DNA of 21,426 nucleotides from Escherichia coli (GTDB lineage Bacteria > Pseudomonadota > Gammaproteobacteria > Enterobacterales > Enterobacteriaceae), in assembly GCF_003334765.1 (NCBI RefSeq), contig NZ_QOWT01000047.1. One strand, given 5' to 3'. Positions 14,031-18,636 of this stretch are shown here, piece by piece; the first letter of the stretch is position 1; every line of letters begins with the position of its first letter. The notes beneath the pieces are model-generated. The model was given only the letters and a program-made list of their open reading frames with translations, had not been told where the DNA came from and searched no databases. Both the position numbers and the translations under genes were made by a program.

Positions 14031-14456
14031 ATGAGTGCTATTAATGTGTTATCTCAGGAGGAAAAATTTATACATGTTGTTGATAAATTTATAACCCATA
14101 ATCACAACGGCGTTAATAACAATGTCTTTTATAAAAAACTTTATGTTCTCTTCGCCGGATATCATCTGAAGTATTTTTATTCACGGGCGCAATATCGCAA
14201 TTCGTGTTATCACGTTGATAATATCATGCAGATGTTTATGGGTGTCGTTTCTACCCTGAAGACCCCTCTGCTCAGGCAACTCGCAAACAGTGACACATTG
14301 CTGCATTGCCTGAATTCGCTCGTGAATTATATTTCAGGCAATCTGGATGAAGCAGAGCACATTTATGCTGATTTACTGGCACAGTATGAAAAGAAACGCA
14401 TTGCACGTTCTCTGGCTTATACACCACCAGGATCCGTGGTCAGGAAAAGACTGTGA
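14031..14456 (+). CDS. hypothetical protein, 141 aa, C-terminus ..PPGSVVRKRL
   Basis: ATG 14031 has GGAGG (14021-14025) 5 nt upstream, while the ORF-track start at 13965 has no SD. No motif is recognisable. The C-terminal tail resembles that of the ankyrin protein. Confidence 0.6.
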   Translation: MSAINVLSQEEKFIHVVDKFITHNHNGVNNNVFYKKLYVLFAGYHLKYFYSRAQYRNSCYHVDNIMQMFMGVVSTLKTPLLRQLANSDTLLHCLNSLVNYISGNLDEAEHIYADLLAQYEKKRIARSLAYTPPGSVVRKRL

Positions 14457-14544
14457 GACATCGGAAATGCGCCGGACAAGGCAGAGTATGGCAGAGTGAC
14501 ATAAAAGCAGTCGTTTCCCGCAAGATATTACCGGGCATTAAAAA

Positions 14545-14573
14545 GGCAGGATCCACCGATTTGGTGTCCTGCC
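14545..14573 (-). terminator. strong hairpin terminator between convergent genes (best U-tract for the minus-strand lipoprotein operon)
   Basis: The hairpin is GGCAGGA..CACC-gattt-GGTG-TCCTGCC: 7 bp, a 2-nt bulge, then 4 bp. On the plus strand it is preceded by AAAAA, which gives a U5 tract after the hairpin on the minus-strand transcript. Confidence 0.6.
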
Positions 14574-14597
14574 TGGCGGGATTATTTTATTGTGGTC

Positions 14598-14918
14598 TTA
14601 CTTATCAACGACCTGCCAGCCATCATCTGTTTTGACCAGCTTGACAGCCGCTGTGCGTTTTTCGTTATCGACAACAGCTGTTACATTGCATTTATAGCTT
14701 TTATCCGATAGTTTTTCGCAGTCGTGTTTTTTGACTGATTTTAACTTCCGCAGCATGTCAGGCGTGATATCGTTTCTCGCTATGGATTTAACGATGGCAT
14801 TCGTCTGCTCCACGACCTTATTCATCGCAGTGTAAATATCCTGCTCAGACGGTTCACTGGTGCAGCCGGTCAGCAAAAAAATGGACGCAATGAGTGTGGT
14901 AAATGCATATGTTTTCAT
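14598..14918 (-). CDS. small lipoprotein, 106 aa
   Basis: MKTYAFTTLIASIFLLTGC is a signal peptide with lipobox L-T-G-C. The mature part ends ..AAVKLVKTDDGWQVVDK, typical of small periplasmic or lipoprotein beta-sheet domains. The function is unknown. Confidence 0.8.
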   Translation of the reverse strand: MKTYAFTTLIASIFLLTGCTSEPSEQDIYTAMNKVVEQTNAIVKSIARNDITPDMLRKLKSVKKHDCEKLSDKSYKCNVTAVVDNEKRTAAVKLVKTDDGWQVVDK

Positions 14919-14944
14919 AAAATAATCCCAGACGGTAGAGTACG

Positions 14945-17077: not shown

Positions 17078-17481
17078 GGGTCTGACTCCAGAAATGTTGA
17101 GGGAATAAGGTGATCCCTGAGAGTTTTGATTTGTCTGCGCAGGGCGAAGAGTTCTGTACGGGTCAGTTCGCTGTCAGGGCTTTTGCTGTCGAGATGACTC
17201 AACAGGTAGTTTAAATCCTGTGAAAGGCTGCCAAGTTTTATCCATGCTTCACGATTGATTTCTGGCAGAACCGGCGGGAGTTTATTCAGGGAAGCCATCC
17301 TGAGCCATTCTCCTTTTTTATACTGACCTCTTTTACTGTCGAGAATAATTAATTCTTCTTCATTTAATCTGACACTGATGCAGTGATGTCGTATTTCATT
17401 CTCAGGAAATTTGTCAGTATGGAATTTACCGCGTTTTGATACTCTGGTTATATCATCATCATTACTCATGTCACTGTTCAT
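17074..17481 (-). CDS. MobC-type relaxosome accessory protein (ribbon-helix-helix mobilisation protein), 135 aa
   Basis: ..HHCISVRLNEEELIILDSKRGQYKKGEWLRMASLNKLP.. followed by ..LSQDLNYLLSHL.. and ..LRRQIKTLRDHLI fits the MobC (PF05713-like) layout. The gene lies immediately upstream of the relaxase and is translationally coupled to it. Confidence 0.8.
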   Translation of the reverse strand: MNSDMSNDDDITRVSKRGKFHTDKFPENEIRHHCISVRLNEEELIILDSKRGQYKKGEWLRMASLNKLPPVLPEINREAWIKLGSLSQDLNYLLSHLDSKSPDSELTRTELFALRRQIKTLRDHLIPSTFLESDP

Positions 17482-17580
17482 AGTTATCCTTTTATTTCAT
17501 GTTTATTACTACAGATAACCGATGAAATGAATAAGTCAAGTTGTTACGGGATAAATAATTTAATTATCTGGATTAAAAAA

Positions 17581-17607
17581 GGTATACCATTTGACAAATA
17601 GTATACC
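17581..17607. promoter_or_regulatory. 27-bp near-perfect palindrome upstream of mobC (candidate operator or accessory-protein site)
   Basis: In GGTATACCATTTG-A-CAAATAGTATACC, 12 of 13 arm positions pair. It is centred at 17594, 100-126 bp upstream of the mobC ATG, in the 201-bp gap between the ankyrin gene and mobC. Confidence 0.5.
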
Positions 17608-17682
17608 CACGAGGACATATCAGATTAATGGTCATTAAATGAATCCTTGCAGACTAAGAAAAGGGTTGTTTACTCCAGAGTT

Positions 17683-18636
17683 TTAGAGTCTTTTTCGTAC
17701 AGATGAACGGGGGATCTCTGGCTTCATTTCTTTTAACAGGTCTTTTTTCTCTCTTGCTGCGATATAAGAAAAAATCTTATCGGAGTCAGAACGCTGTCTG
17801 AGTATATCGTCGTCCATTCGGATACCATTTCGAATGAACCATTTCACACTTTCTATGCCGGTGTAGATACCAATATGTTTATCATGATAACAATTATAAA
17901 ACTGAACATGACTGATATCGGTATATTTTTTCAGTGAGGTAAAGAAGTACTTCATGTTTTTGACATATAATGCGAAGGAACAGTGTTCAGCGATAAGGAT
18001 ATTACGCCCTTTTTCATGAAGCAAAGCAATTAGAGGCAAAGCCTCAGTTGAAACATGTTTAAATAATACTGGCGTGCTGTCTATTCTATCAACATGGCGT
18101 TTGAGGGCATTAATACTGAAATCATATATCCACCACTCGTTGTCAGTCGGAAGATCCAGCACCGCTTTGCCACCATAATCTCTGTGGTTTATGTCACACC
18201 CTTTATTTACCCAGTAATCAAAGACGTCATGATCGAGGAGGTCATAAAGAAGCGTTTGTCCTTCGTTATCTGTGCTGTGGATATCAATGCCCGCGTTTAT
18301 GAGGAGTTCCGCACAATCTATGGCGTAGCGCTGCCAGTGAAGACAGGACTGGCCTTTATTATTTTTGTGGTGAACGTTAATACCTGACTTTATCAATAGC
18401 CTCACTGCACGTGGGCTTTTTCTGCTAAACAGGGCATTATTACCATAACAATCTGTATGGTTCAGCGCTATGCCTGCTTCAATCATGGCTTTTAAAGCCC
18501 CGATACTGTCGCAACCGAAAAGGGCGTTTTCACCGTGTTCATTAAGTGTGTTAATGTCAATGCCTGCAGCAATGCAATTCTGGACGTCTTTTTTAGTTTT
18601 GCTGTCAAATAAATTATCTTCTGTATAGTTACTCAT
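17683..18636 (-). CDS. ankyrin-repeat protein, 317 aa, C-terminus ..PRSSVRKRL
   Basis: The ATG has AGGAGA 7 nt upstream. Residues about 20-165 contain 4-5 ANK-like units (G-x-x-A/L-L-x...L-I-x-A/S-G-I-x-x-N-x-x-D/N). Examples are HGENALF..MIEAGIALNHTD, YGNNALF..LIKSGINVHHKN, KGQSCLH..LINAGIDIHSTD and EGQTLLY..WVNKGCDINHRD. The C-terminal half is unassigned. Confidence 0.85.
   Translation of the reverse strand: MSNYTEDNLFDSKTKKDVQNCIAAGIDINTLNEHGENALFGCDSIGALKAMIEAGIALNHTDCYGNNALFSRKSPRAVRLLIKSGINVHHKNNKGQSCLHWQRYAIDCAELLINAGIDIHSTDNEGQTLLYDLLDHDVFDYWVNKGCDINHRDYGGKAVLDLPTDNEWWIYDFSINALKRHVDRIDSTPVLFKHVSTEALPLIALLHEKGRNILIAEHCSFALYVKNMKYFFTSLKKYTDISHVQFYNCYHDKHIGIYTGIESVKWFIRNGIRMDDDILRQRSDSDKIFSYIAAREKKDLLKEMKPEIPRSSVRKRL

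Follow-up and report, generated by a model that had tools for sequence, protein, structure and literature searches.

The question raised by the locus described here is why two proteins which share no detectable homology over most of their length should terminate in an identical basic tip, R-K-R-L-COOH. The stretch of DNA under study (the window; 21,426 nt) is a chromosomal island of Escherichia coli adjoining a tRNA-Met gene, and the two proteins are p141 (141 amino acids [aa]; positions 14031 to 14456, plus strand), which corresponds to the RefSeq coding sequence WP_001274227.1 (hypothetical protein), and the ankyrin protein Ank317 (317 aa; 17683 to 18636, minus strand), which corresponds to WP_000074023.1 (ankyrin). 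The ending that they have in common is a portable short linear motif under selection, and the tag of which it forms the tip is carried by four or more unrelated protein families encoded on mobile elements of enterobacteria.

A tag shared by unrelated proteins

The sequence of p141 ends PPGSVVRKRL, i.e., ...YEKKRIARSLAYTPPGSVVRKRL, and that of Ank317 ends PRSSVRKRL. This shared RKRL ending was the subject of the original prediction, a reading of the DNA sequence alone, and both ORFs (open reading frames) and both endings were verified, the same coding sequences being present in RefSeq. The tails are specified by AGG AAA AGA CTG TGA in p141 and by CGA AAA AGA CTC TAA in Ank317, and, among relatives, three codons (AGA, AGG, and CGT) are used for the penultimate Arg (position -2) and six for the last Leu. 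Because the codons differ both within the pair and among the relatives, the match lies in the proteins and not in the DNA, just as had been proposed from the two genes of the window. A repeat or duplication at the DNA level was ruled out by this codon comparison.

The frequency with which such endings arise by chance was estimated from a background of 4,691 ORFs of at least 80 aa, located in unrelated loci that had been retrieved for another purpose, among which [KR][KR][KR][LIMV]-COOH is present in five (5/4691). At this background rate, the probability of encountering two or more such tails among the approximately 25 genes of the element is about 3e-4, and a chance origin of the shared tail is unlikely.

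The shared stretch is longer than originally described, as an ungapped alignment (AQYEKKRIARSLAYTPPGSVVRKRL versus AAREKKDLLKEMKPEIPRSSVRKRL) extends it from 7 to approximately 26 residues. Profile-profile comparison (hhalign) of the p141 and ankyrin families aligned the last 26 columns only (E = 0.008, probability 5%), and beyond these columns no homology was detectable; a profile of p141 lacking the tail likewise returned no match among the other tail-bearing proteins. A gapped BLASTP match of 95 residues (E = 1e-4), according to which p141 would be homologous to the non-ankyrin half of Ank317, was rejected on the basis of the same profile-profile comparison, restricted as it was to 26 columns.

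In p141, the tag occupies residues 116 to 141 (14376 to 14453, plus strand) and comprises L-A-Q-Y-E-K-K-R-I, a linker, and R-K-R-L-COOH (14442 to 14453), while in Ank317 it occupies residues 292 to 317 (17686 to 17763, minus strand) and comprises I-A-A-R-E-K-K-D-L-L-K-E-M, a linker, and R-K-R-L-COOH (17686 to 17697). The AlphaFold2 (AF2) model of p141 is of low confidence (predicted local distance difference test [pLDDT] score, 50) and all helical, its last helix ending at residue 124 and residues 125 to 141 being disordered. That of Ank317 (pLDDT, 91) is composed of ankyrin repeats (residues 1 to 160), an uncharacterized alpha/beta domain (residues 165 to 280), a terminal helix (residues 285 to 304) which is closed by E-K-K-D-L-L, and a disordered tail (residues 305 to 317). 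The ankyrin repeats score above the gathering threshold (Pfam Ank_2/Ank_4), and three fold searches with the Ank317 model returned ankyrin repeats only. The tag is therefore described as a helix end, E-K-[KR]-x-[IL], followed by a disordered linker of 12 to 17 residues and free sequence and by a tip of the form [KR]-[KR]-R-[L/I/M]-COOH.

The retrieved set comprised approximately 60 p141 relatives and approximately 78 ankyrin relatives. The ending [KR][KR]-R-[L/I/M] is present in all full-length p141 relatives and in nearly all ankyrin relatives of more than 50% identity, with Arg occupying position -2 in 19 of 20 distinct p141 tails and in all 23 distinct ankyrin tails (23/23). Among the distinct tails of both families, position -1 is aliphatic, positions -3 and -4 are K or R, and positions -5 and -6 are variable. 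The three to five residues which precede the tip are diverse, being SVV, SVI, PGG, TGR, TVS, PGA, or SGL in p141 and APV, APK, SPK, TAC, or AAS in the ankyrin family. More distant p141 relatives (approximately 25 to 30% identity), detected by exhaustive profile search, end in RKRVRL, RSARL, RRKKRGKRL, KRRGGRRF, or YRKLR and retain a Y-E-[KR]-x-x-[IL] stretch, and ankyrin relatives of 412 aa (ankyrin412; 30% identity) end in KRRL or KKRL; the members of an ankyrin subfamily of approximately 291 aa end directly after the last helix and have no tail. Conservation in homologues had been put forward as a check on the idea, and the tail is indeed kept in both families while the residues upstream of it vary, so that, to judge from these comparisons, it is under selection at the protein level. 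As a separate observation, the tail-bearing ankyrin412 is repeatedly paired with the tail-less paralogue of approximately 291 aa in the retrieved loci (L007, 6273 to 9138; L008, 2530 to 5347).

Every locus retrieved was scanned for the tag, and the same ending, which had been suggested as something to look for in other genes of related elements, was found on further families. Kp122, a protein of 122 aa encoded directly after gajB, ends ..KSEIKQNKKRL. The block ankyrin412-GajA-GajB-Kp122 recurs in Klebsiella, Enterobacter, Cronobacter, and others, in eight different right-hand neighborhoods, with ankyrin412 and Kp122 at its ends; two tail-bearing genes thus bracket the Gabija system, and their products may represent accessory parts of this Gabija variant. 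The left flank of the block is constant and carries TetR/OsmC (L002, 1 to 12000; L096 to L103). Outside this block, ankyrin412 is also encoded in small integrase islets. A further carrier is a backbone protein of approximately 100 aa which is kept in 65 plasmids of 30 to 55 kb (the family includes L013, pKAM644_6, and L014, p9MO13m20) and ends ..TTRKRM, its relatives at 44% identity ending ..TTKKRI or ..AIKKRL. Its gene sits among orphan DNA methylase genes, many of which are present on these plasmids, together with genes for DotA/TraY, type-4 pilins, an LPD7 polyvalent protein, a DUF927 primase-helicase, H-NS, and three short ankyrin proteins, without a full type IV secretion system (T4SS). 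These plasmids are typed as “non-mobilizable,” and their long same-strand gene arrays resemble leading regions. In related elements of the type found in the window, second and third ankyrin paralogues end VKRRL, TKKRL, or SKKRL, and no tail was found on the other cargo of such elements (the DUF4209 protein in the ankyrin slot, retron Eco8, and SIR2). Matches of p141 on plasmids and of the ankyrin protein in phages were both sought, and none were found.

Net charge over the last 25 residues is +6 for p141, +5 for Ank317, +6 for ankyrin412, and +2 for both Kp122 and the plasmid family. The nuclear localization pattern K-[KR]-x-[KR] is absent from the last eight residues of all representative tails tested, occurring only in some ankyrin variants (..KRKRM). 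No match to p141, the ankyrin C-terminal domain, Kp122, or the 146-aa protein encoded beside Ank317 was obtained in Pfam, PHROGs, PADLOC, NCBIfam, or PDB sequence profiles, and no description of the motif or of the p141 family was found in the literature searched.

A distant ankyrin hit led to a metagenome contig of 24.8% GC (L006; ENA ERZ22382522 NODE_1776), in which at least 13 genes between positions 5790 and 20768, belonging to several unrelated families and encoding proteins of 114 to 366 aa (four ankyrin paralogues among them), have the ending [KR]R[L/I/M/V] and carry an E-K-x-x-I motif approximately 22 residues before the end. The enterobacterial tail profile scores these tails no higher than shuffled decoys, and, given such decoy-level scores, they are regarded as look-alikes and not as evidence for the tag. 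Relatives of the ProRS encoded on this contig are located on contigs of 1.0 to 1.36 Mb, one of which, upon examination, proved to consist mostly of ORFans and to encode a thymidine kinase and an RNA ligase; the contig may derive from a giant virus or from a bacterium with a reduced genome.

A backbone gene and a cargo gene

The two tail-bearing genes of the window differ in their standing within the element. In each of the seven elements that were examined (the window, L093 to L095, L104, L105, and L107), p141 adjoins the relaxase operon. In the small integrative and mobilizable elements (IMEs) beside mutS (L094 and L095), the gene order is integrase, cargo, Rep-like, p141, small genes, relaxase, mobC-like, and DUF4209. 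Distant p141 homologues are encoded in elements of another lineage (GC content, 37 to 39%) alongside DUF6387, AlpA, and two recombinases; these elements also hold a gene of relaxase size, overlapped by an accessory gene, and defense cargo (TIR, caspase-like, PycTM, and Hcp), and in some of them a 106-aa gene lies by p141, in the position held in the window by the gene for a 106-aa lipoprotein-like protein. The slot after mobC is occupied either by ankyrin genes or by a gene for a 602-aa DUF4209 protein. Because p141 lies next to the mobilization module even in distant elements while the ankyrin slot is exchangeable, p141 is, on the evidence of gene order, a backbone gene of this IME family which is tied to the mobilization module across deep divergence, and the Ank317 gene is replaceable cargo beside a putative origin of transfer (oriT). 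Both proteins had initially been taken for cargo, a designation which holds for the ankyrin gene and has to be withdrawn for p141. Members of this IME family were observed both beside mutS and at other sites (L094, 938 to 13933; L095, 3687 to 13121; L093, L104, and L107), with exchangeable defense cargo that includes retron Eco8, SIR2, type I restriction-modification (R-M), TIR, caspase-like, PycTM, and Hcp with DUF4225.

The relaxase gene (15842 to 17077, minus strand) encodes a MobA/VirD2 nuclease domain (PF03432) with a score of 80.7 bits, which is over the cut-off, and a C terminus that is not basic. While the earlier assignment of this protein as a relaxase is upheld, its placement in the MOBP class corresponds only to NCBIfam hits that fall below threshold (TraI_MobP_relax, 52 bits against a cut-off of 250; Bacteroid_MobB, 57 bits against a cut-off of 400). 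The start of the relaxase gene is overlapped by a gene (17074 to 17481, minus strand) assigned, by position only, to a MobC-like relaxosome accessory protein, the product of which gave no family hit in the profile libraries; the same overlapping arrangement recurs in L093 to L095, L104, and L107. The 200-nt gap between this gene and the ankyrin gene contains a 13-nt inverted repeat, GGTATACCATTTG/CAAATAGTATACC (17581 to 17607), which is considered a putative oriT recognition hairpin.

Directly upstream of the ankyrin gene lies a gene for a tail-less protein of 146 aa (18651 to 19091, minus strand), the pair being kept in L004 and L093. Three genes, coding for a protein of 118 aa, the 146-aa protein, and Ank317, all read toward the inverted repeat, with mobC and the relaxase gene located beyond it, and this gene order is the same as that of plasmid F, in which leading genes are followed by oriT and then by the tra genes. 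Anti-defense genes of leading regions have this orientation (PMC11541004).

The island further resembles the PIME elements of Enterobacteriaceae, which combine an integrase, alpA, rep, and mob with large defense cargo (bioRxiv 10.64898/2026.01.12.698999). PIMEs are defined by trbJ and trbL, neither of which is present in the element of the island, and by this definition its membership among the PIMEs was discarded; no mention of p141 or of the tag was found in the sections of the preprint consulted.

Candidate receptors of the tag

Since the tip is kept in homologues and is also carried by other genes of related elements, a shared function is argued for, and the suggestion that the tail-bearing proteins are functionally linked is well supported. 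On the two mechanisms originally suggested, transfer through a T4SS and a ClpX-type degron, the evidence points both ways. The flexible tail, with its near-invariant Arg at position -2 and aliphatic last residue, would be consistent with a docking peptide for one common receptor. As to the identity of this receptor, the coupling protein (substrate receptor) of a helper conjugative T4SS is tentatively placed first, although the probability attached to it falls well short of even. According to this proposal, p141 and Ank317 would leave the donor together with the relaxase-DNA complex of the IME and act in the recipient, p141 as a backbone establishment or transfer factor and Ank317 as an accessory factor, possibly with an anti-defense role. 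The ranking reflects the location of p141 in the mobilization backbone, the orientation of the ankyrin gene and the two genes preceding it toward the putative oriT, as in the leading region of F, and the affiliation of the family of approximately 100 aa with the backbone of small plasmids that harbor T4SS fragments only. It also reflects the published finding that cloned, positively charged C termini generally supported transfer of Cre through the F-type pED208 system, most of the pED208 substrates tested having also passed the pKM101 and RP4 systems (PMC11288057).

In its broader form, the proposal is that a C-terminal address tag, portable and not described before, marks proteins of hitcher elements (IMEs and small plasmids without a T4SS of their own) and of defense islets for a common fate; of most interest would be the version in which the hitchers load their own effectors, p141 and ankyrin-repeat proteins included, into the conjugation channel of a helper. 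In this form, the proposal is viewed as somewhat doubtful. If true, a class of interbacterial conjugation effectors would become recognizable from sequence, which is of consequence because the substrate signals of conjugative T4SSs, like natural C-terminal degrons, are poorly defined and can rarely be recognized in this manner. A tag of 26 residues with a four-residue tip is conserved enough for searching and may explain how elements without secretion machinery of their own equip themselves for new hosts. Whatever its receptor, the tag would link several families with no assigned function, including a backbone gene of widespread defense-carrying IMEs, and would offer a small transplantable peptide for studies of protein transfer or turnover.

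The signals of VirB/D4-type (type IVA) T4SS substrates (VirF, VirE2, VirE3, and MobA) and the C termini of the conjutome are, like the tag, unstructured, rich in Arg and Lys, portable, and, for p141, Ank317, and the plasmid family, encoded on conjugation-dependent elements (PMC11288057). Substantial evidence nevertheless weighs against a T4SS signal. Ankyrin412 and Kp122 are encoded in a Gabija islet with no relaxase or oriT within 8 to 10 kb in any of the eight contexts, and the tagged ankyrin412 is also found in the small integrase islets, i.e., far from any relaxase. The tag is present on no annotated protein of F (40 to 90 kb, including the leading region), R388, or R64 (1 to 100 kb), and is also missing from the relaxase itself and from the DUF4209 cargo which takes the ankyrin slot. 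Conservation extends to the tip but not to the overall charge, which is as low as +2 in Kp122 and the plasmid family, and so sharply defined a tip (position -2, Arg; position -1, aliphatic) is unusual among the loose T4SS signals known. A search of the last 30 residues of all tail families by regular expression returned no match to R-x7-R-x-R-x-R, the arginine pattern which Vergunst and coworkers are said to have reported for Agrobacterium in 2005.

The tag could also represent a degron, or a remodeling signal, recognized by an AAA+ machine of the host, ClpX(P) being the first candidate, and mobile-element proteins would in this way be kept short-lived, either as transient establishment factors or as labile guard- or antitoxin-like components beside defense systems. 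A universal host receptor would explain why the tag is found both in the presence of a relaxase and in its absence, be it in the Gabija islet, the integrase islets, or the plasmids. The strictness with which the last two residues are conserved would agree with recognition of a free C terminus, and in the models the tag is exposed as a C-terminal peptide on a disordered linker. The ssrA degradation tag is bipartite, consisting of an SspB-binding part and a ClpX-binding LAA tip, and the sequence of helix-end motif, spacer, and tip may be regarded as analogous. The resemblance is one of architecture only (two parts, a spacer, and a tip at the free C terminus), without sequence similarity, and ssrA is added by transfer-messenger RNA (tmRNA) whereas the present tag is genetically encoded and has no known adaptor. 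Closer in sequence is the class 2 C-terminal motif of ClpX exemplified by the MuA tail RRKKAI, in which a basic cluster is followed by an aliphatic end on an exposed tail of a mobile-element protein (PMC8138137, Table 1). MuA, like other known ClpX C-terminal tags, ends in two small apolar residues (AI or AA), however, whereas only the last residue of the tag is apolar, the Arg at position -2 being invariant but for one of the 20 distinct p141 tails, and there is no evident reason for a backbone protein such as p141 to be unstable. A degron is considered rather unlikely. By its defining sequence features, which include neither the Vergunst pattern nor an apolar residue at -2, the tag as aligned here fits neither the known T4SS signals nor ClpX motif 2.

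The defense-rich surroundings of the tag genes would also be compatible with docking onto some other common partner, such as a host hub or a component common to defense and anti-defense, by which the tag would form a link in the conflicts of mobile elements. Two of the genes bracket GajA/GajB in a block which moves as a unit, and among the cargo of the IMEs are retron Eco8, SIR2, TIR, caspase-like, and type I R-M genes; ankyrin repeats serve as modules for protein binding, and a T4SS is not consistently linked to the tag. Nonetheless, there is no candidate partner that accompanies the tag in every context, p141 is part of the element's backbone and not of a defense cassette, and the argument is purely contextual. 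This proposal is judged unlikely. A comparable short, conserved C-terminal module, which docks ankyrin-repeat proteins to a cellular machine, is the PRANC/F-box-like domain of poxviral and symbiont ankyrin proteins, for which no Pfam hit was obtained with full-length Ank317 or with 13 C-terminal domains; the tag differs from it in being carried by non-ankyrin proteins also and in having bacterial hosts.

The cluster of three to four Arg/Lys residues could, alternatively, tether the proteins to nucleic acid or the nucleoid, e.g., on the transferred DNA or at the origin of replication (oriV) or oriT. Pro and Gly precede the tip in several p141 variants (PGGRKRL and PGARKRL) in an AT-hook-like manner, and p141 is located between iterons and the mobilization operon; yet electrostatic binding would not be expected to require Arg at -2 and an aliphatic residue at the end, the tip is very short, and profile searches gave no other sign of DNA binding in the ankyrin, Kp122, or plasmid families. 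A tether is considered improbable. That the ending has no function, being a chance match or a relic of some former exchange between the 3′ ends of genes, as the brevity of the motif and the modest hhalign score of the 26 columns might suggest, is scarcely credible against a chance expectation of approximately 3e-4 and a tip that has been kept across deep divergence in four families while flanks and codons changed.

Other features of the island

A 4.9-kb stretch of the island is present at 99% identity or more in approximately 60 of 5,426 complete E. coli genomes, in each case on the chromosome, and diverged relatives of this stretch are present in approximately 190 further genomes of the same set. 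In some E. coli strains, the 4.9-kb region is matched with 36 extra bases, which could correspond to copy number variation of a perfect hexanucleotide repeat within the relaxase gene (TGGCAC × 7.7; 16199 to 16244), coding for a (Pro-Val)n linker.

Upstream of p141 lies a presumptive replication region. A gene for a 187-aa Rep-like protein (12428 to 12991, minus strand), with weak profile hits to HTH_36/Phage_rep_O-like families, probably encodes the replication initiator of the element. Three iteron-like direct repeats with a 49-nt period (13433 to 13566) are located between this gene and p141 and are followed, before p141, by a very AT-rich stretch (13900 to 14020), repeats and stretch together probably constituting oriV. 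The Rep-like protein ends ..RRRNPADGIPF, which resembles the acidic-hydrophobic tip of single-stranded DNA-binding protein (SSB), ..DDDIPF, and, by this resemblance, may mimic the SSB tail so as to recruit host replication proteins.

On the other side of p141, terminator-like hairpins for both strands (14545 to 14582) separate it from the convergent mobilization operon, the distal genes of which (14598 to 15656, minus strand) encode lipoprotein-like proteins of 106 and 132 aa and a zinc-ribbon membrane protein of 91 aa.

The first and last 77 nt of the window (1 to 77 and 21350 to 21426) are perfect inverted repeats of each other, and the inward-reading ORFs at the two ends share their first 23 residues; the region is probably bounded by an insertion sequence, or a repeat of some other kind, present in two inverted copies. 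A 90-aa ORF (19673 to 19945, minus strand), apparently what is left of a gene, aligns to a type II restriction enzyme profile (E = 7.5e-42) over the C-terminal end only (profile positions 214 to 301 of 331). An ORF at 20776 to 21372 (plus strand), which extends into the terminal repeat, displays weak matches to the P-loops of AbiO and GajB.

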